NCBI RefSeq assembly: GCF_000317145.1
Contig: NC_019697.1
Location: 5,785,889-5,817,888, forward strand
DNA length: 32,000 nt
DNA from: Chamaesiphon minutus PCC 6605
Lineage (GTDB): Bacteria > Cyanobacteriota > Cyanobacteriia > Cyanobacteriales > Chamaesiphonaceae
Reading direction: 5' to 3'
Part shown: positions 20,731-31,062 of the stretch, piece by piece
Layout of the letters: every line of letters starts with the position of its first letter
Position numbering within the stretch: position 1 is the first letter of the stretch
Notes under the pieces: model-generated
What the model saw: only the letters and a program-made list of their open reading frames with translations
What the model was told of the DNA's origin: nothing
Database searches by the model: none
Made by a program: the position numbers and the translations under genes

Positions 20731-22023
20731 ATGTTGCAAGGTAGTGAAAAATCAGTCGAGCTTAGCTTTAAAGATCTAATTCTAGAACTAAAAAAGATTA
20801 AAACACAGTCTTTGAGTGGTAACTTGACTGTAAAAGTAGAAACCCACCCCAATTGGATGTTCTCATTTCGATTGGGACGTTTGGGCTGGGTCGATGGTGG
20901 CATTGAGCCAATTAGTTGTTGGCAAAGAAATTTAACTTTGGCCCAACTCGATTTACCTCCAGAGAAGCTAGCAGAAATTAATAATCCTAATAAGACTTCT
21001 TTAGATTCGCACGTTTTAGCAGAATTATTAGTTGAAGAACTAATCGATCGCGATAAGTGTGCTAATTTAGTTGCCAGAATGACTATCGAAAGTTTATTCG
21101 ATATCATTCAGTTCAGTCAGCATAGCGGCAATCGCTTATCTTATCAATTTAGTCAGATTGGAGCTAGTAATAGTCAGCTAAATCTAATTTTACCACTACT
21201 TGAAATCGAACCGATTCTGACTAAATCGATTCAAACATGGCAAGAATGGTCGAATGTAGGATTGGCAGCCTACGCGCCTAGTTTATTTGCCATTGTCTCT
21301 AAATCACTCGATGTTACTCAATTAGCAAACAACCCCGATTTGCATCATACCGTATTGTCGATCGATGGCAATCGTTCGCTTCGTAGTTTGGCAGCCAACA
21401 GTCGCCAATCGGTAATTAATTTCACGAGTACGCTGCTGCCTTTACTGCGTGCGGGTTTTATTAATTTATCGAGCCAATCTAAATCGAGAGTAACTAGAAT
21501 TAGTAGCTCAGATCTTACTACTAGCCAATTAAGCGGTCACCTCAGCAACCAACTGAGCAACCAACTAAGTAACCAACTAAGCAATCAAGTCGGCGATCGA
21601 TCTGGTATTCCCCAAAATCCACCCTTAGCAGCAATCCCATCAGAAAAACAGAGTCCATTAATTGCTTGTATTGACGATAGTATCTTGATTTATCAATCTC
21701 TCGAACGGATTTTGACAGAGCATGGCTATCGTTCGTATGGAGTGCAAGATCCGCTCAAAATTATGCCTAGCTTGATTAGAAACAAACCAGATTTTATTTT
21801 CTTGGATTTGTTGATGCCCATAACCAATGGGTATGAAGTCTGCGAACAAATTAGAAAAACGCCCAGTCTCAAACATATTCCCGTCATTATCTTGACTGGT
21901 AAAGATGGGTTGATCGATCGAATGAGATCGAAAATGGTTGGCGCGACTGGCTTTCTAGGTAAGCCAGTAGATGCAGATTCAGTTTTAAAAATGATCGATA
22001 AATATCTTGTTATAGGTAAATAA
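20731..22023 (+). CDS. PatA-type response regulator (N-terminal PATAN/DUF4388 domain plus C-terminal REC), PixG/PilG-like
   Basis: 430 aa. The C-terminal REC has PLIACIDDS, the phospho-acceptor context DFIFLDLLMP, IPVIILTGK and GFLGKP. The N-terminal ~250 aa have the layout of PatA-family regulators. It is the first gene of a tax-type cluster. Confidence 0.85.
   Translation: MLQGSEKSVELSFKDLILELKKIKTQSLSGNLTVKVETHPNWMFSFRLGRLGWVDGGIEPISCWQRNLTLAQLDLPPEKLAEINNPNKTSLDSHVLAELLVEELIDRDKCANLVARMTIESLFDIIQFSQHSGNRLSYQFSQIGASNSQLNLILPLLEIEPILTKSIQTWQEWSNVGLAAYAPSLFAIVSKSLDVTQLANNPDLHHTVLSIDGNRSLRSLAANSRQSVINFTSTLLPLLRAGFINLSSQSKSRVTRISSSDLTTSQLSGHLSNQLSNQLSNQLSNQVGDRSGIPQNPPLAAIPSEKQSPLIACIDDSILIYQSLERILTEHGYRSYGVQDPLKIMPSLIRNKPDFIFLDLLMPITNGYEVCEQIRKTPSLKHIPVIILTGKDGLIDRMRSKMVGATGFLGKPVDADSVLKMIDKYLVIGK
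21541..21588 (+). repeat. Intragenic 12-nt tandem repeat encoding (LSNQ)x4 in the PatA-type regulator linker
   Basis: ctcagcaaccaa ctgagcaaccaa ctaagtaaccaa ctaagcaatcaa. Confidence 0.85.
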
Positions 22024-22025
22024 TT

Positions 22026-22388
22026 ATGAGTCAGATTTTAATCGTTGAAGATAGTAAGTTAGAAGCAGATAAACTTAAGAAATGTTTGGAAGGACAAGGG
22101 TTTTCTATTCTTGTAGTTACAAGTGGTGAAGAAGCCGAAATTAGGCTTAAAACATTTAAGCCTAATTTAATCGTACTAGATGTGATTTTACCTGGTGAAA
22201 GTGGCTTCGAGCTATGTCGAAAACTCAAAACCGAACCCGCTACTCAAAGTATCCCGATCGTGATTTATTCGACTAAAGATAAGCAAATCGATCGCACTTG
22301 GGGAGATATGAGCGGTGCTGATGCTTATCTGAGTAAAACTGTCGATGAGCCAACTCTATTACAAACAGTCAATCGCTTATTGGGTTGA
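22026..22388 (+). CDS. CheY-like single-domain response regulator (PixH/PilH-like)
   Basis: 120 aa. QILIVEDS, LIVLDVILPG, IPIVIYSTK and ADAYLSKT are the canonical REC residues. Confidence 0.9.
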   Translation: MSQILIVEDSKLEADKLKKCLEGQGFSILVVTSGEEAEIRLKTFKPNLIVLDVILPGESGFELCRKLKTEPATQSIPIVIYSTKDKQIDRTWGDMSGADAYLSKTVDEPTLLQTVNRLLG

Positions 22389-22418
22389 AATAAGATTCAG
22401 ATTTATGAGTGATAAATT

Positions 22419-22943
22419 ATGAGTAAAATTATCGATCGAGCGTCACCATCTTCGAGCAGCCAACAACTGTTGGCTCGTCAATCTGAATCTGATGCCCAGG
22501 AGCGGTTTCTCGGTTTTACGATCGGCGATGATTTAAATGCTTTGATTCCGTTAATCGATCTTCAGGCGACTATCAAAATTTTATTGTCAGAAATTTTGCC
22601 AGTACCACAAATGCACGAATCATTACTGGGCATTATTAATTATGGTGGTAAAGCTACTTGGGTACTAGATTTAGCACATCTGATGGGTGGCAATGGTTAC
22701 CTCAAGACCCCAGAGTTGACAACTGGAATGGGGATGTTATTTCAGATCCACAATGAAACGGTCGCCATGTTAATCGATCGAGTCGGGACGATCGAAACAT
22801 ACAATTTCCAACAATGCTTGCCGATTGGTGAAACCATGTTTACCGAGCAAATGCGGCTATTTTTAGCTGGCTATTTTATCGATGAGAAACAACAGTCGCG
22901 AGTAGTTATCGATCTTCAGCAGGTAATTCGCGCCATTATTTAG
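22419..22943 (+). CDS. CheW-like coupling protein (PixI/PilI-like)
   Basis: 174 aa. RFLGFTIGDDLNALIPLIDLQATI, LLGIINYGGKATWVLDLAHLMG and AMLIDRVGTIE fit the CheW fold pattern. Confidence 0.85.
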   Translation: MSKIIDRASPSSSSQQLLARQSESDAQERFLGFTIGDDLNALIPLIDLQATIKILLSEILPVPQMHESLLGIINYGGKATWVLDLAHLMGGNGYLKTPELTTGMGMLFQIHNETVAMLIDRVGTIETYNFQQCLPIGETMFTEQMRLFLAGYFIDEKQQSRVVIDLQQVIRAII

Positions 22944-23028
22944 ATTGAAATAGTTACATCGAAAGAATACCTAAACCTATCACGATTCGGTAGATAAAAA
23001 CTAGTAGTTATTACATAAAAATATTGCC

Positions 23029-26000
23029 ATGTTAAAAAATATCTTTAGTTCGGCAGACGATCGCTCCGACAAAGCTACCGATCCTCTCAATCCTGTCACT
23101 CTACCTTCACAACAACCGATGTCTAATCCAGATCGCGCTGCCATGACTAGCACTAATACCAAGCAACAATTATTATCGCTACTTCAAGAGACTCAGGCTA
23201 AGCTTGAAACCGCCAATAGTCCCAACTCCGAATCACTGCGCCAAAACATTCGCAAAGCCAGAGAATTAGCCGGATTTTTGACCGTACCGGGTACCAATCC
23301 GCAGCCGCAGAGCGCGCCTGCATCTGCGGGAATCGACCCCGAAAAAATTTATCAAATCGCAACTAGAATCAGACAGGCTACATTACCGCTAGCGGCATTC
23401 AATAGTGCGGTTGCTGATATCAAAGCATTGCTCAATGCCGATCGCGTCCTGATTTACCAGTTGACTGGAGCTGGCATGGGTCGGTCGATCGCTGAAGCCG
23501 TCCAAACAGGCTTGACACCCACCCTCAATACCGAAATCCCCCAAATTGGCTTTGGCTTCGAGCAACTTACCGACGAGCGCACCCAACGGACGATCGCGTT
23601 AATTAATAGCGAAACCAGCCCTTACCAAAAGCAAATTTTGGAACAGTACCAGGTGCAGGCGACAATTGCCGTACCGATTTTAATTAACGGTTACTCGGCA
23701 GCTACCGATAGCTATAGCTTGGGTAGAGTCTGGGGTTTATTAGTCGTCCATCAATGCGATCGCCCGCGCATGTGGTCGGAAGCGGAAACCACTTGCCTAT
23801 CGCAATTATCTCTAGAACTGACGCTGGCAGTCCAGCCCAATCAACCCCTGCTGCAATTATCCCAACGCCGCGACCTGTTAGCTGCGATCGAGATCGAAGC
23901 ACAGGAATTGATGCAGACTACCCTCGACAATATCCGCCACAACCTCCAAGCCGATCGGGCGATGGTTGTCGCTTACAATCCAGACTGGAGCAGTACTGTT
24001 ATTGCCGAATCTGTCGGCGTCAACTGGGCCAAAGCGGGCACCTCACTAGATTTAGATTACTCGATTAATAACGAGAATTACAAGCCTTATTACGTCGTCA
24101 ACGACATTCAAGCCAAAGGATTCGATCGCTGCTTATTAGAATCCCTCGAACCGCTGCAAATGAAAGCGTACATCGTGGTTCCAGTCTTGAAAAACAACCA
24201 ATTGGTCGGCATGTTGGGCATCTACCAAAACTCTGGCGCGCGCAACTGGCAAGAGTCCGAACTCAATGCTATGCTCGAATATGCCAAAACATTTAGCTTC
24301 CCGATCCAGCAAACCACCAGCCGCCGTCTCGCCCAGTTTCAGACCAAAAAAATGGAGCAGCGGCTGCAACGGGAACGGGGACTCTCCAAACTCCAAGAGC
24401 GGCTCCGCAGTGCTAAAGATGAGAAAACTGTCTTTCAAGTCGCCACTCAAGATGGACGCAAATTGCTCGAAACCGATCGATTAGCGATCTATCAGTTCGA
24501 TCCCGATTGGGGCGGTCGCTTTATCGCCGAATCCGCCGCACCGGGATGGGTAGACTTGATCGAAACCGTCCATATCGTCCAAGATACCTTTCTTCAACGC
24601 ACCCAAGGCGGTCGGTACAAAGATGGCGAATGTTTTGCCGTCGATGATATCTACACCGTCGGTCACCAAACTTGTCACGTCCAACTATTAGAACAGTTTG
24701 AAGCTCGCTCTTATATGCTCGCGCCGATCTTTGGTGCCGATCGCAAACTGTGGGGACTAATTGCGGCTTATCAAAATGCCCACGTCCGTAAATGGCAAGA
24801 AGAAGAAGTCGAAACCCTGCGTCAAATGGGTCTGCAAGTCGGGATTGCCATCGAGCAGATCGATTATATCAAGCAACTCCAAAAACGTGCCGATCAAGAG
24901 CAAACCATCAACCGGATTACCGAGCGCATCCGCCAATCGCTAGTCGTCGATGATGTCTTCGCTAGTGTCGTTCAAGAAATCCGCCAAGCCTCCAAAGCCG
25001 ATCGCGCGGTTGTCTATCAGTTTAATGAAGATTGGAGCGGTCAAGTTATCGCCGAATCTGTCGGGAGTGGCTGGGTATCGCTGTTAGTCGAGCAAGCTAA
25101 AGATGAAGTCTTAGCAGGCAACCGAGCGACTAACGATCGCTGCATCCTCCGCAAATGGGCGCAAAAAGATATCACCGAAGAAGATACTTACCTCCAAAGT
25201 ACCAAAGGCGGTAAATATGCCCAAGGTTCCAAATCGACCGCAGTTGATGATATTTATGCCAAAAACTTCCCCGATTGCTACATTCAGTCGCTCGAAAAAT
25301 ATCAAGCCAAAGCTTATATCCTCGCACCGATTTTCAAAGGTGGTAACCTCTGGGGTCTGCTCGGTGTTTACCAAAATGATGCACCGCGCATCTGGGATGA
25401 CTCCGAGCGTTCGGTCATCGAACAAGTCGCCCTCCAAATTGGCGTTGCGCTGCAATTAGCTGAATACCTCGAACGCGTTCGTACTCAAGAACAGGAACTC
25501 TCCCAAATTGTCGATCGAGAGCGCGCTAACCGCCAAGAATTGGAACAAGAGGCTCTGCGAGTCCTCAAAGCGATCGGACCCTCCTTCCGAGGCGATTTAA
25601 CCGTCCGTGCGCCGCTATCTGAAACCGAGATCGGCACGATCGCCGATGGTTACAATACCACCATCCAAAGTCTGCGCGAACTAGTGCGCCAAGTTCAGAC
25701 CGCCGCGATTAGCGTGAGTGAGACTTCGAGCGAAAACAACCTGTTGGTTAACAATCTCTCGGCTCAAGCACAACAAGAACTCGAACAACTCGATCGCGCC
25801 TTGGTGCAAGTAGATCTGATGGCCGCTTCTAGTAAAGAAGTTGCCGAATTTGCCCAAAAAGTCGAACAAGTCGTCCAATCGGCCAACCGCACCGTTCAAA
25901 ACGGTGACACGTTGATGGAAAGCACAGTGGAAGAGATTCTGGAAATCCGCTCCACCGTATCGACAACTGCTAAGAAAATCAAACGTCTGGGTGAAACCTT

Positions 26001-26526
26001 CCAGAAGATTTCTAAAGTTGTCAACCTGATCGAAAACTTCGCCACCCAAACCAACCTACTCGCACTAAATGCTTCGATCGAAGCCACCCGTGCGGGTCAA
26101 TACGGTAAAGGTTTCGCAGTGGTCGCCGATGAAGTTCGCTCCCTGGCTTACCAATCTGCCAATGCAACCACCGAAATCGAACGCTTAGTAGATGAAATCC
26201 GGATCGACACCAACGACGTTACCGAAGCCATGGAAATCGGGATCGCTCAAGTCGTCCAAGGCACCAACTTAGTCAACGAAACCAGACAGAGCCTCAGCGA
26301 GATCGTAGTTGCCACTGGCCAGATCAGCGAACTCGTCAAAGCCATCAGTCAATCTGCGGGTACTCAAACCAAACAGTCCCAAAAACTGAGCGAAGCAATG
26401 ATCGACGTCGCCACGATCGCCAATCTCAGCTCCGACAGCGCACTCCAAATCTCCGAATCTTGTCAACAGCTCATTGCCACTTCGCAAGTGTTGGAGACTA
26501 GCGTGAGCCGATTTAAGGTGGACTAG
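23029..26526 (+). CDS. Soluble methyl-accepting chemotaxis protein with four GAF domains (PixJ/PtxD-like putative cyanobacteriochrome photoreceptor)
   Basis: 1165 aa with no hydrophobic TM segment. GAF-like blocks lie at about nt 23431-23833, 23944-24300, 24466-24858 and 24994-25455. A HAMP-like linker follows ([28 protein letters not shown]). The C-terminal MCP signalling domain contains [40 protein letters not shown]. Confidence 0.9.
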
Positions 26527-26568
26527 GGAATAGGGAATAGGGAATAGGGGATAGGGAATAGGGATTAG
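26524..26568. repeat. Tandem heptamer array (TAGGGAA, about 6 units)
   Basis: tagggaa tagggaa tagggaa tagggga tagggaa tagggat. The array begins with the TAG stop codon of the MCP gene. Confidence 0.95.
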
Positions 26569-26660
26569 ACAAATAGGACGGACGCTAGCGTCCTAAACCT
26601 AAAGACTCAAACCTAAAATCCTATCCTCTATCCCCTAAGTATCCCTAACCTCTAACCCTT

Positions 26661-26695
26661 CCCCTATCCCCTATCCCCTATCCCCTATCCCCTAA
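26661..26695. repeat. Tandem heptamer array (CCCCTAT x5), inverted relative to the 26524 array
   Basis: cccctat x4 then cccctaa, ending on the base before the CheA ATG at 26696. More degenerate copies extend upstream to about 26618. Confidence 0.95.
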
Positions 26696-29600
26696 ATGAC
26701 CACCGACGATCTAGATTTTCAAGAGTCACTCGATCGATACTTTGAGATCGAAGCGGCGGAATTATTACAAACGATCGAACAAACACTCCTGAGTCTGGTT
26801 CAAGAAAAAACGATCGAGCGCGTCCATACTCTCATGCGTGCAGCGCATACGATTAAGGGTAGTGCGGCCAATTGTGGTTTCAAAACGATCGAAACGATCG
26901 CCCATCACCTCGAAGATGTCTTCCAGGCACTATATCCACCCGAATTAGAGATCGATCCCGAACTGGGACTGCTCTTAATGGAAGGTTACGATTGTCTGTA
27001 CGATCCTTTGAGCGCGTTGTTGGCGGGAGTTCCCTACGACGAAGCCGCGACCCTCGAGCGAACGGCAGCATTATTTGCGAGGTTACAAACTCATTTAGGC
27101 GACTTTTTTGGGCGAGAGACACCATTACCGACCGCCGCCGAACTCGGTTTTGATGTAATCGGCTCGATTTTTACCGATAGCATCCCACAAGATCTCGAAG
27201 ATCTCTCGATCGCGATCGCCAGTCAAAATGTGGGTAGGGTAAAAGAGAGTCTCAACTCGTTAGCCGAATTTTTATTGGAGTTGGGTGGCTCTTATAGTCT
27301 CCCTGGTATTGCGGCGATCGCCAAGACGACGCTAGCCGCTGTAGAGCGTCATCCAGGCAGAGTGCTAGAGCTAGCACCGATTGCCTTGGCCAATTTTCAA
27401 CAAGCCCAAATCGCGATCGTCGGTGGCGATCGATCGGTTGGTGGTGAAGTATCATTTGAATTAGCAGCTTGGGGTGACTCTCAGACCCTGACAACAGCTC
27501 CAGCCACAGATGAATCTAGTTCCGCCGAATGGTTATCGTTAGTCGATAACGACACTACCACCGCCAAAGCCCCGACTGCCGAATCAAATGCTTCAGAATG
27601 GCTCTCCTTAGTCGATAACGATACTACCACAGCAGCCACAACTACGAGCGATGCGGCTGCTTCGGAATGGTTATCGTTAGTCGATAACGACACTACTACC
27701 GCCGAAACCACGACTGCCGAATCAAATGCTTCGGAATGGCTCTCCTTAGTCGATAACGATACTACCACCGTAGCCACAACTACGAGCGATGCGGCTGCTT
27801 CGGAATGGTTATCGTTAGTCGATCGTGACACCACTCCCGCCGAAACCACGACTGTCGAATCAAATGCTTCGGAATGGTTATCGTTAGTCGATAATGACAT
27901 TACTCCGGCTGAAACTACAACTACGAGCGATGTGGCTGCTTCGGAATGGTTATCGTTAGTCGATAACGACACTACTCCCGAAATTTACGACGAACCGCAA
28001 GAGCACGCTCGATTGCATCAGATCGTCGATGCCGATTTAGAGATTGTTGAGATTGGAGCGTTCGAGCCAGATCGGACAGAATATCTCATCGAAGCAACCG
28101 ATAGCTCGCAATTGGCGCATATCTCTACACCCAACTCCCAGCTAGCTCTGACTACTCAATCGGGAATCGATCGCATTTTCCAATCGATTTGGCTCGGACA
28201 GCTAGAAGCCACTGCCGAAGACCTCAATCCGCCAGCACCAGAGCGGATGGTACCAGAGCGCGAAGCAGCACCCGATGCGCTAGTAAGCGTGCGCGTAGCC
28301 ACAGTCCAACTCGAACGGCTCAGTCATGCCATCGGCGAACTGACGATCGACGATAACCAACAATTCCTCCGCGCCGAGCAATTACAAAGACTCGCCCAAT
28401 CTACCGTCGAACAATACCGTCGCTGCGAGCAAAAGCTGCGTCTAGTCAGCGATTGGGCCGATAAAAATGCCGCGATCGACGAACGCCAAAAACTGGCATC
28501 GCGGCGCAAACAATCTACCAAAAATAAAACTAAAAAAGGCAAAAAAGCAGCCAATGAGATCGTCGCTCATTTCGATAGTCTCGAATTAGATGTCTATAGC
28601 GACTTGAGCATCTCGATCCAAAATCTCACCGACGAGCTGGCCGAACTCGGCCTCAAGGTAGGGAATTTGGCAGAAATGACCCAGAGAGCGCGGATGACCT
28701 TGGGCAAACGCAAGCAAATCCTCGCTGATGCCCAGTCGGAACTATTTGAAGCCAGAATGGTGGAAATTGCTGGCGTCCTCAATCGCTTCCCGCGCTTGCT
28801 CCAGCAAATGGTCGCCTCTCATCGCAAACCCGCCCAATTACAACTGATCGGTAGCGAAGTTTCGATCGATAAAATTATCGCCGAAAAACTCTACGATCCT
28901 TTACTCCACCTAGTTAGGAACGCCTACGACCACGGCATCGAATCGCCAGAAATTCGTGCCAGCCAAGGTAAAGCCCCGATCGGACAATTGACGATCCAAG
29001 TCTATCACCAAGGCAACCGCACCAAAATCGAAGTCAGCGATGACGGCCAAGGTTTGAACTGGGATAAAATTCGCCAGCGCGCGATCGATATGCACCTACT
29101 GCAAGCCAGTCACGCGGCAACCGAAGCCGAGTTGGCCGAAATTATGTTTGCTCCCGGATTTTCGACCGCTGACAAAGTTAACGATCTTTCCGGTCGCGGC
29201 ATTGGTTTAGACGTCGTCCGCGACCGAATTGGAGCCTTACAGGGCACGATCGACGTGCGCTCTGTCGCAGGTCAAGGCACCACCTTTGTGATGCAATTCC
29301 CCCTCAATCTCACCACCACTCGGTTGATGATTTGTGAGTCCCAAGGCTTCGTCCATGCCCTGCGAGCGGATGCCATTTCGCAAGTATTACTGCCCTCACC
29401 CGATCGAATCGTCTCCCAGTCCTTGCTTTCAGACAAAGATTCTTCCACATTTTTACGCTGGGGCGAAGGAGCCGAACAGAAATTAATTCCTATTTATGCA
29501 GTCAATAGTCTCCTCGACTATCGGTGCCAAATCGTCGCTGGCGATCTTAGTGCCAGCACGCTGTTCCCCATCCAATCCAAACACAGCACCAACGCCTTAC

Positions 29601-30334
29601 TGTTACTAGAAATCAACGACGATCGCATCTGTCTCGAAGTCAGCCGCATCTTGATGGAGCAAGAACTAGTTGTCAAATCGCTCGGTCAAACCTTTGAATT
29701 GCCTAATTATATTCAAGGTTATAGCGTCCTGGGCGATGGCAGTCTGACACTCGCCCTCGATCCTGTAGAACTCATCGCTCGCGTTAAAGCCAGTAACAAC
29801 CCTGTTACTCAGTCTATCCCCGCGAAATTGCCTACCCTACCAGCAACCACCCAACCCGCATTAGCTCCAGCCAGCGATGTACCCTTGCCCGAAGAAGTAG
29901 CATCAACCCTCGGCGATCTCAACAGCCACAATGCCGCTTCCACTGGGCGACAGCTACAAGTCTTAGTCGTCGATGACTCCCTGGTTCAACGCCAAAGCTT
30001 GGCTCGCTCCCTCACTAAAGCTGGCTGTCAAGTTATCCAAGCCAGCCACGGACGCGAAGGCATCCTCCGACTCCAAGAACATCCCCGCATTCGCCTGGTA
30101 GTTTGCGATATCGAAATGCCCCAAATGAATGGATTCGAGTTTCTCAGCTATTGTCGCCAAGATCCCAAATTCTCTCAAATTCCGATCGTCATGCTCACCA
30201 CGCGCGGCGGTCAAAAACACCGCGATCTCGCTATGACTTTAGGAGCTAAAGACTACCTTACCAAGCCCCAATCCGATCGAGATTTATTAGACATCATCGC
30301 GACACTAGCACAGCCTAGTGAAGTAGGAGTCTAG
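26696..30334 (+). CDS. Hybrid CheA-type histidine kinase (Hpt, repeat linker, dimerisation, HATPase, CheW-like, REC), PixL/PilL-like
   Basis: 1212 aa. Hpt AAHTIKGSAANCG (His51), P3-like VRVATVQLERLSHAIGELTI, N-box LLHLVRNAYDHGIE, G1 DDGQGL, G2 GRGIGLDVV, an internal CheW-like domain, and a C-terminal REC (VLVVDDS, VVCDIEMPQMNGFEF, DYLTKP). Confidence 0.9.
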   Translation: MTTDDLDFQESLDRYFEIEAAELLQTIEQTLLSLVQEKTIERVHTLMRAAHTIKGSAANCGFKTIETIAHHLEDVFQALYPPELEIDPELGLLLMEGYDCLYDPLSALLAGVPYDEAATLERTAALFARLQTHLGDFFGRETPLPTAAELGFDVIGSIFTDSIPQDLEDLSIAIASQNVGRVKESLNSLAEFLLELGGSYSLPGIAAIAKTTLAAVERHPGRVLELAPIALANFQQAQIAIVGGDRSVGGEVSFELAAWGDSQTLTTAPATDESSSAEWLSLVDNDTTTAKAPTAESNASEWLSLVDNDTTTAATTTSDAAASEWLSLVDNDTTTAETTTAESNASEWLSLVDNDTTTVATTTSDAAASEWLSLVDRDTTPAETTTVESNASEWLSLVDNDITPAETTTTSDVAASEWLSLVDNDTTPEIYDEPQEHARLHQIVDADLEIVEIGAFEPDRTEYLIEATDSSQLAHISTPNSQLALTTQSGIDRIFQSIWLGQLEATAEDLNPPAPERMVPEREAAPDALVSVRVATVQLERLSHAIGELTIDDNQQFLRAEQLQRLAQSTVEQYRRCEQKLRLVSDWADKNAAIDERQKLASRRKQSTKNKTKKGKKAANEIVAHFDSLELDVYSDLSISIQNLTDELAELGLKVGNLAEMTQRARMTLGKRKQILADAQSELFEARMVEIAGVLNRFPRLLQQMVASHRKPAQLQLIGSEVSIDKIIAEKLYDPLLHLVRNAYDHGIESPEIRASQGKAPIGQLTIQVYHQGNRTKIEVSDDGQGLNWDKIRQRAIDMHLLQASHAATEAELAEIMFAPGFSTADKVNDLSGRGIGLDVVRDRIGALQGTIDVRSVAGQGTTFVMQFPLNLTTTRLMICESQGFVHALRADAISQVLLPSPDRIVSQSLLSDKDSSTFLRWGEGAEQKLIPIYAVNSLLDYRCQIVAGDLSASTLFPIQSKHSTNALLLLEINDDRICLEVSRILMEQELVVKSLGQTFELPNYIQGYSVLGDGSLTLALDPVELIARVKASNNPVTQSIPAKLPTLPATTQPALAPASDVPLPEEVASTLGDLNSHNAASTGRQLQVLVVDDSLVQRQSLARSLTKAGCQVIQASHGREGILRLQEHPRIRLVVCDIEMPQMNGFEFLSYCRQDPKFSQIPIVMLTTRGGQKHRDLAMTLGAKDYLTKPQSDRDLLDIIATLAQPSEVGV
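27515..27980 (+). repeat. Intragenic tandem repeat: seven 69-nt units (one of 72 nt) encoding SEWLSLVDNDTT... within the CheA linker
   Basis: GAATGG starts at 27527, 27596, 27665, 27734, 27803, 27872 and 27944. Two unit subtypes alternate through the first four copies, giving a 138-nt super-repeat. Confidence 0.95.
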
Positions 30335-30461
30335 GATTTAGGCTTTAGGCTTTAGGCTTTAGGCTTTAGGCTTTAGGTTTTAGGCTTTAGGCTTTAGGCT
30401 TTAGGCTTTAGGCTTTAGGCTTTAGGCTTTAGGCTTTAGGCTTTAGGCTTTAGGCTTTAGG
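30334..30461. repeat. STRR-like heptamer array (GGCTTTA, about 18 units)
   Basis: ggattta ggcttta ... with one ggtttta variant. The array starts on the last base of the CheA stop codon. It has the same unit and orientation as the 20221-20307 array. Confidence 0.95.
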
Positions 30462-30486
30462 AACTGCGTTCTCTAAATTCATTACT

Positions 30487-30521
30487 TCCCCCTCTCCCCC
30501 TCTCCCCCTCTCCCCCTCCCC
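30487..30521. repeat. Tandem octamer array (TCCCCCTC x4)
   Basis: tccccctc x4 followed by ccc, ending 4 nt before ATG 30526. Confidence 0.9.
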
Positions 30522-30525
30522 TAGA

Positions 30526-31062
30526 ATGACTTCCTCCCTCCTATCCCAACGGTTAGCTAGTAATAACGAAGATGGCAATACGATCGACGCGATCGTGTTT
30601 GCCCTAGCCGATATCGAACAGACACCAATGGCCAACTACCTGTTTGCGATGCCTGTAGCAGCCGTGGAAAAAGCGATCGTCTATCCATCAGAGCGAGCAG
30701 TGCTCAGAGATGGGATTGGCATCATGAATTTGGGTGCAGAAACTTTGACAATTGTCGATTTACGCCAAAAATTCGCCTCGATCGATCCGCTCCAGGATTC
30801 TTCCAAATTTCTGATCTTATTTCATACCCACGCTGGCGAATTGTGCGCTCTTCCCATCAAAGATGCACCAGTATTAATGGACATCGATCCCGCCATGATT
30901 CGATCTCTTCCGCTAGCTTATCGCGAAGTCAATCAGCTTAGTTTTATCTCCCAAATGGCGATCGTCCCGCAAGAAGGTAACCTAGCACCATTACAGATTC
31001 TACTCATTGGCTTCGACCCGATCGATCCAAACAGATCGAACAGATCCAGTCACTTGAATTAA
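30526..31062 (+). CDS. Second CheW-like domain protein
   Basis: 178 aa. YLFAMPVAAVEKAIVYP, GIGIMNLGAETLTIVDLRQKF and ELCALPIKDAPVLMDID fit a divergent CheW-like domain. The gene lies directly after the CheA gene. Confidence 0.65.
   Translation: MTSSLLSQRLASNNEDGNTIDAIVFALADIEQTPMANYLFAMPVAAVEKAIVYPSERAVLRDGIGIMNLGAETLTIVDLRQKFASIDPLQDSSKFLILFHTHAGELCALPIKDAPVLMDIDPAMIRSLPLAYREVNQLSFISQMAIVPQEGNLAPLQILLIGFDPIDPNRSNRSSHLN

Follow-up and report, generated by a model that had tools for sequence, protein, structure and literature searches.

Comparison of GAF4 with described insert-Cys cyanobacteriochromes

Insert-Cys cyanobacteriochromes (CBCRs) have an insertion loop that contains a weakly conserved CXXR/K motif; the Cys of this motif is their second one and binds bilin C10 through a second thioether (Cho 2017, PMC5240096; PMC7332365). 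Table S2 of PMC5240096 gives 'DTYL/CY' for all four of its characterised insert-Cys CBCRs, Mbr3854g4, Mbl3738g2, NpR1597g2, and NpF2164g3. The same table gives 'DXXL/CH' for AnPixJg2 and 'DXCF/CH' for TePixJ, and the main text of that paper speaks loosely of a 'CH motif'. NpF2164g3 is the violet/orange prototype of the group, with a dark state at 398 nm. In this study, we compared these domains with GAF4, the last of four GAF domains in a chemotaxis protein of the methyl-accepting type (MCP) from Chamaesiphon minutus PCC 6605. The window, that is, the whole stretch of DNA analysed, covers 32,000 nucleotides of contig NC_019697.1 (positions 5,785,889 to 5,817,888), and coordinates refer to it. 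The GAF4 core lies at 24994-25455 on the plus strand, in frame with an open reading frame (ORF) of 1165 aa, of which it forms residues 656-809. The features of the domain are as follows.

24892..25488, plus strand: GAF4 including the helices at both ends, residues 622-820 (GAF fold in the AlphaFold2 model, CBCR sequence match)
25090..25179, plus strand: insertion loop of 30 residues, 688-717 (left unaligned with AnPixJg2 and NpR6012g4, gap-free against NpF2164g3)
25141..25152, plus strand: Cys705-Ile-Leu-Arg708, CXXR/K motif with the insert-Cys, presumed site of the second thioether (script-derived coordinates)
25183..25194, plus strand: Asp719-Thr-Tyr721-Leu722, DTYL motif in place of DXCF (script-derived coordinates)
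25276..25281, plus strand: Cys750-Tyr751, the canonical Cys for bilin attachment and, after it, the Tyr typical of the family (script-derived coordinates, alignments)
25009..25011, plus strand: Val661, beta1-notch tuning position (mapped by alignment)
25045..25047, plus strand: Val673, beta2 'Phe' tuning position, the same residue that violet/orange NpF2164g3 has there (mapped by alignment)
25300..25302, plus strand: Tyr758, helix 'Phe' tuning position, eight residues after the canonical Cys (mapped by alignment)

GAF4 has an insertion ahead of the Asp motif, a Cys in a CXXR/K motif within it (Cys705 in CILR), DTYL, and Cys-Tyr, which together are the marks of the insert-Cys group. Its closest similarity in both sequence and fold is to GAF domains of the AnPixJg2/NpR6012g4 type, which places it in the lineage of expanded red/green (XRG) CBCRs. 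The DXCF class was considered and rejected, as the Asp motif of GAF4 reads Asp-Thr-Tyr-Leu and contains no Cys. By these motifs, GAF4 is an ordinary insert-Cys CBCR domain of the expanded red/green lineage, and Cys-Tyr is the family's own signature. The Tyr does not stand for a lost His, because DTYL/CY has been published for all four characterised insert-Cys CBCRs of Table S2. Judged together with the gene context, we estimate a probability of about 0.82 that GAF4 is a functional insert-Cys CBCR and the last sensor domain of a PixJ/PtxD-type phototaxis receptor.

A preliminary description of this DNA had ascribed CBCR hallmarks to 24994-25455, and the translation is indeed in frame there, with the quoted motifs at the coordinates given for them. 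It had also described an insertion of about 30 aa with Cys705 ahead of DTYL, and likened the domain to the two-Cys CBCRs of the insert-Cys type. Both observations were borne out by the lack of alignment between 25090-25179 and the red/green CBCR structures, and by the CXXR motif with the same 14-residue spacing as in NpF2164g3 and Mbl3738g2. The alignment against CBCR subfamilies that it proposed assigned GAF4 to the insert-Cys group within the XRG lineage and not to DXCF.

The comparison with NpF2164g3 was made through a Nostoc punctiforme protein of 1745 aa that contains seven GAFs (P0136, in the cluster of P0030; ACC80768.1 / WP_012408769.1 / UniProt B2J668). Its sequence confirmed it as NpF2164 (PtxD), because Leu962 stands in E-I-L-E-K-I-Q-A-K-A-Y, as in the L962Y primers of NpF2164g5 (PMC7504144), and because its sixth GAF (1070-1199) lies inside the published NpF2164g6 construct 1038-1206. 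NpF2164g3 (VO1, P0136 497-650) and GAF4 are 49% identical over 154 residues without a gap, with the insert-Cys, DTYL, and Cys-Tyr in register. Both have a 30-residue insertion, a CXXR/K motif, a Cys-to-Asp spacing of 14 residues, beta1 Val, beta2 Val, and beta6 Tyr, and both belong to a multi-GAF MCP. They differ at the helix tuning position (Tyr758 in GAF4, Phe in NpF2164g3), in the core of the insertion (DRCILRKW in GAF4, ERCN[IV]KDY in NpF2164g3), and in the host protein, which has four GAF domains in the one case and seven in the other. At the tuning positions, GAF4 has Val at beta1 and beta2 and Tyr on the helix and at beta6. The mapping of the tuning columns was checked, as the same alignment gave the published Val/Val/Phe/Tyr for NpF2164g3. 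As far as the alignments go, none of the conserved pocket residues of the insert-Cys family is missing from GAF4.

Two near-UV/green domains of Microcoleus IPPAS B353, UG2 (Mbl3738g2) and UG1 (Mbr3854g4), have DTYL/CY as in GAF4. In GAF4, Cys705 precedes the Asp of DTYL by 14 residues, and the spacing from beta2 to the Cys is 32. UG2 has the same two spacings (14 between Cys569 and Asp583, and 32 from beta2), whereas the Cys-to-Asp spacing of UG1 is longer, at 26. The tuning residues are Leu/Tyr/Leu in UG2 and Cys/Phe/Tyr in UG1, as against Val/Val/Tyr in GAF4. The published mutagenic primers show the insertion context to be C-T-K-R-L-D for UG2 and S-Q-C-D-N for UG1, both unlike the DRCILRKW of GAF4. 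Previous work showed that insert-Cys mutants lose the UV band, leaving absorption at 620 nm in UG1 C713A and 592 nm in UG2 C569A, and that beta2 Val moves the states of UG1 and UG2 to ~400 and 590 nm (PMC5240096).

Cys-Tyr is also read from the sequence of NpF2164g2 (near-UV/blue). NpF2164g5 (P0136 887-1016) has Cys957-Tyr958 and no insertion; it binds bilin and is photo-inactive and fluorescent (PMC7504144). Since this Cys-Tyr domain binds bilin, a Tyr at that position is compatible with chromophore attachment.

AnPixJg2 and NpR6012g4 (3W2Z, 5ZOH, 6BHN) share with GAF4 the lineage, the GAF core, and the helix that carries the canonical Cys. Unlike GAF4, they have no insertion, no second Cys, a Cys-His pair, and a single-Cys red/green photocycle, and they have Phe at beta2 and on the helix where GAF4 has Val and Tyr. 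The DXCF CBCRs (TePixJ, 4GLQ/3VV4) would share a principle with GAF4, namely a second Cys reversibly bound to bilin C10 and a short-wavelength dark state. However, their second Cys stands within the Asp motif, whereas that of GAF4 is in the insertion and its DTYL has Tyr, and their similarity to GAF4 is much lower (E ~1e-10).

Match to solved structures and model of GAF4

We searched the Protein Data Bank (PDB) with GAF4 using phmmer. AnPixJg2_BV4 was matched with E = 1e-34, and AnPixJg2 and NpR6012g4 both with E 8e-33, values far too low for a chance resemblance to CBCRs. The matches to 5zoh/3w2z (AnPixJg2) and 6bhn (NpR6012g4) were each split in two, covering query 1-32 and 62-153. Query 33-61, ~29 residues of GAF4, stood opposite only ~6 residues of the solved red/green chains. 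This split indicates that the insertion in GAF4 is real. Cys750 was aligned with the first residue of Cys-His in both AnPixJg2 and NpR6012g4.

An AlphaFold2 model of residues 622-820, built as the apo form (no bilin) from a 60-sequence domain alignment, showed a GAF fold with a predicted template modelling score of 0.74. For the core, pLDDT (predicted local distance difference test score) was mostly 70-90. The best PDB fold match of the model in Foldseek was AnPixJg2 3W2Z (E 3.5e-18, template modelling scores 0.78/0.87). A report summarised in PMC5240096 describes the NpF2164g3 loop as random coil in the dark state, with a helix in the photoproduct. The disordered loop of the apo model of GAF4 would fit this random-coil dark-state loop.

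The insertion class and the DRCILRKW subclade

GAF domains similar to GAF4 were cut from 120 listed homologues, which gave 731 domains. We counted the residue after the canonical Cys in those domains that have this Cys, taking an insertion of at least 20 residues as insertion-bearing and keeping duplicates. The insertion-bearing domains comprised 249 with Cys-Tyr and 0 with Cys-His, whereas the insertion-less ones comprised 232 with Cys-His, 55 with Cys-Tyr, and 23 with Cys-Leu. The association between insertion and Cys-Tyr had a Fisher p of ~1e-98, uncorrected for relatedness. The change from His to Tyr is also seen outside the insert-Cys group, in the 55 insertion-less Cys-Tyr GAFs, for example NpF2164g5.

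After removal of duplicates, 255 non-redundant insertion-class domains remained. The canonical Cys was present in 248 of these and the insert-Cys in 245, and Tyr followed the canonical Cys in 253/255. Lys or Arg stood three residues after the insert-Cys in 226 of the 255, and the Asp and the Tyr of the DTYL motif were found in 250 and 230, respectively. Since 253/255 have Tyr at that position, the insertion and Cys-Tyr form one known package.

A FastTree tree was calculated from 258 non-redundant domains, the insertion class and three insertion-less outgroups, without sequences of UG1, UG2, and NpR1597g2. A clade of 229 domains (support 0.915) held GAF4, NpF2164g2, and NpF2164g3 and not a single insertion-less domain. 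Within the tree, GAF4 belonged to a subclade of 76 domains (support 0.975), and NpF2164g2 and NpF2164g3 both fell outside it. The insertion of this subclade is strongly conserved, with a DRCILRKW core and the consensus E-Q[26 protein letters not shown], unlike the loop of the insert-Cys family at large, which the literature describes as 'poorly conserved'. Its Trp is present in 96% of the subclade, the Arg before the Cys in 91%, and the Cys in 89%. The tuning residues are likewise shared, with beta2 Val in 65/76 and helix Tyr in 73/76. The 76 domains were recovered from the PixJ-like homologues searched, and close relatives occur in named genomes of Chamaesiphon, Pleurocapsales/Xenococcaceae, Spirulinaceae, and Cyanothece/Rippkaea.

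None of the five characterised insert-Cys members appears by sequence to belong to the DRCILRKW subclade, because the tree excludes the Nostoc domains and the insertion contexts of UG1 and UG2 lack the DRCILRKW core. The subclade might differ from these five in photocycle, loop structure, or partner interaction. The strongly conserved loop, the Val/Val/Tyr set, and the non-photoconvertible UG1 F684V variant point in this direction, and we regard such a difference as conceivable but unlikely.

In 5 of the 76 subclade domains, including P0042 (297-450) and L074, Ser takes the place of the insert-Cys (for example D-R-S-I-L), and the insertion and Cys-Tyr are kept. By sequence, such domains are single-Cys derivatives that arose naturally from a two-Cys sensor. 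Among the PixJ-like homologues, DRCILRKW domains often occur as 2-4 tandem copies per receptor. Many PixJ-like receptors, among them P0006, P0068, and P0003-P0005, have 3-4 tandem domains of this type with 60-65% identity to GAF4, whereas the receptor in the window has one copy.

Proposed photocycle of GAF4 and alternative explanations

The photocycle given here, from the binding of the chromophore to its second linkage and its colours, was deduced by homology to NpF2164g3, Mbr3854g4, and Mbl3738g2, and a role in phototaxis is likewise a prediction. Cys750 would covalently hold phycocyanobilin at ring A. Cys705 of the loop (CILR) would add to C10 of the bilin in the 15Z dark state and split its conjugation, giving a near-UV/violet absorber at ~380-410 nm. 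Short-wavelength light would isomerise the 15,16 double bond (C15=C16), upon which the second thioether would be let go and a 15E photoproduct absorbing in the green-to-orange range would be formed. The photostate would then be passed through the MCP signalling domain to the operon's CheW, CheA, and CheY/PatA-type proteins. Our best guess for the colour pair is violet/orange, because the Val/Val/Tyr/Tyr of GAF4 is closest to the Val/Val/Phe/Tyr of NpF2164g3. Within this scheme, Tyr751 is taken from the alignments as an ordinary residue of the subfamily and not as a loss of function.

Several points weigh against GAF4 being a functional photosensor of this kind. Residues 690-720 of the apo model have pLDDT values <50 and the insertion is left unplaced, so that the proximity of Cys705 to C10 is taken from homology only. 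Sequence and fold searches of our PDB copy found no insert-Cys CBCR structure. A characterised member of the 76-domain subclade was not found in the literature, of which Rockwell et al. 2017 was not covered. In addition, the UG1 variant F684V, which has the same beta2 Val and helix Tyr as GAF4, formed a 413-nm species for which photoconversion was not detected (PMC5240096). Because it shares this pair, the predicted colour is uncertain and GAF4 may be poorly photoactive. On the other hand, Val and Tyr are near-universal in the natural subclade, which argues that the combination works in its own background.

The last of these points leads to a GAF4 that binds bilin and does not photoswitch, either because both states keep a stable second thioether or because the domain is photo-inactive. 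In the latter case it could serve as a fixed violet absorber, as a partner in energy transfer, or as an element sensitive to thiols or redox state, beside the red/green-type GAF3. UB1 NpR1597g2 has a stable second linkage (PMC5240096), F684V yields no photoproduct, and NpF2164g5 offers a photo-inactive, fluorescent Cys-Tyr domain. However, F684V is a single-site mutant in a different background and is weak evidence, and the Val and Tyr pair is the norm in a large conserved subclade (65/76 and 73/76), which argues for a selected, working photosensor. GAF4 also keeps the Asp and Tyr of DTYL that UG1 and UG2 need for efficient photoconversion (PMC5240096). We therefore consider the absence of photoswitching improbable. 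Still less credit is due to a new photocycle or tuning mechanism, based on the Cys insertion and a lost His, that would set GAF4 apart from the known CBCR families. The preliminary description had correctly read Cys750-Tyr751 without a His but had called the pair unusual and, with the insertion, a sign of an uncharacterised mechanism. It is a tempting reading, since the red/green and DXCF CBCRs of known structure have Cys-His, the main text of PMC5240096 mentions a 'CH motif', and the GAF4 subclade is without a characterised member in the literature found. Table S2 of that paper, with DTYL/CY in all four of its insert-Cys CBCRs, corrects it; NpF2164g2, NpF2164g3, and 253/255 insertion-class domains have the same Tyr, so that the insertion and the missing His are both the norm of the insert-Cys subfamily and the claim of a new mechanism is unsupported. 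It is hardly credible that GAF4 is a decayed GAF without chromophore, kept as a structural spacer and nothing else. Its neighbours GAF1 and GAF2 do lack standard chromophore motifs, but GAF4 keeps all the conserved pocket residues, and its Chamaesiphon orthologues, at 75-92% identity, nearly always keep both Cys.

As an insert-Cys CBCR, GAF4 would give the MCP receptor a predicted near-UV/violet input beside the red/green-type GAF3, as in PtxD of Nostoc punctiforme. For this one domain the result has little reach beyond annotation, and its forward value lies in the large, conserved, and apparently uncharacterised DRCILRKW subclade. With its unusually conserved loop, a DRCILRKW member could be a reasonable target for spectroscopy or crystallography.

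Receptor gene and operon context

PtxD of N. punctiforme has a reported role in hormogonium phototaxis (PMC7332365). The ORF translation and Pfam identify the 1165-aa protein of the window as a PixJ/PtxD-like MCP. Pfam matched GAF in four stretches (E 5e-65 for the whole protein) and MCPsignal at the C-terminal residues 948-1129 (E 8e-41), which makes GAF4 the last sensor domain ahead of the MCP signalling module. The receptor and its neighbours are listed below.

20731..22023, plus strand: response regulator with a long N-terminal extension in a PatA/PixG-like operon position (Pfam Response_reg at 311-422 of 430 aa)
22026..22388, plus strand: CheY-like single-domain response regulator (Pfam Response_reg)
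22419..22943, plus strand: CheW-like coupling protein (Pfam CheW)
23029..26526, plus strand: PixJ/PtxD-like MCP with four GAF domains and an MCP signalling domain (ORF, translation, Pfam)
26696..30334, plus strand: hybrid CheA-type histidine kinase with Hpt, HATPase_c, CheW-like, and receiver domains (Pfam)

The neighbours also include a second CheW, and the gene order of the locus was followed by Pfam from 20731 to 31062. A multi-GAF MCP thus stands together with PatA-type and CheY-type regulators, CheW, and a hybrid CheA, as in PixJ/PtxD-type loci. The order of response regulator, CheY, CheW, MCP, and CheA is the layout typical of cyanobacterial phototaxis loci, of the pixGHIJL type.

The two N-terminal GAF domains differ from GAF4. 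The attachment position of GAF1 is without a Cys; that of GAF2 (23944-24300) has Cys-Leu, and GAF2 has no DTYL-type segment. The Cys-Leu class was seen 23 times among the GAFs of the PixJ-like homologues, and on this count the Cys-Leu of GAF2 is a recurrent domain type and not a one-off decay. An antisense ORF lies within the GAF4 coding sequence (25111-25455, minus strand, 114 aa, TTG start) and is probably a mechanical ORF.

Distribution of GAF4 relatives

With one genome scanned per species, 118 stretches were found to encode relatives of GAF4. The closest were the Chamaesiphon domains described above, which are present at 75-92% identity in many genomes of that genus. More distant relatives were found in Xenococcaceae/Pleurocapsales, Spirulinaceae, Cyanothece, Halothece, Jaaginema, Symploca, and Prochloraceae. 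From these relatives 72 domains were cut out; Cys-Tyr was present in all 69 that could be read by motif search, and the other three gave nothing. A literature search for CBCR work on Chamaesiphon returned nothing relevant.

A search of the 6.76-Mb genome of the strain itself found no second insert-Cys domain, so that GAF4 is the only one there. The only other GAF of this genome that matched across the insertion region was of the DXCIP type, with 28% identity to GAF4. It lies outside the window in a 1160-aa open frame (locus L088; G000:C1:4636046-4636483, minus strand). It has an Asp-Ala-Cys-Ile-Pro motif and lacks a Cys at the canonical position on the helix, and from its sequence it looks like a DXCIP-lineage CBCR without the canonical Cys.

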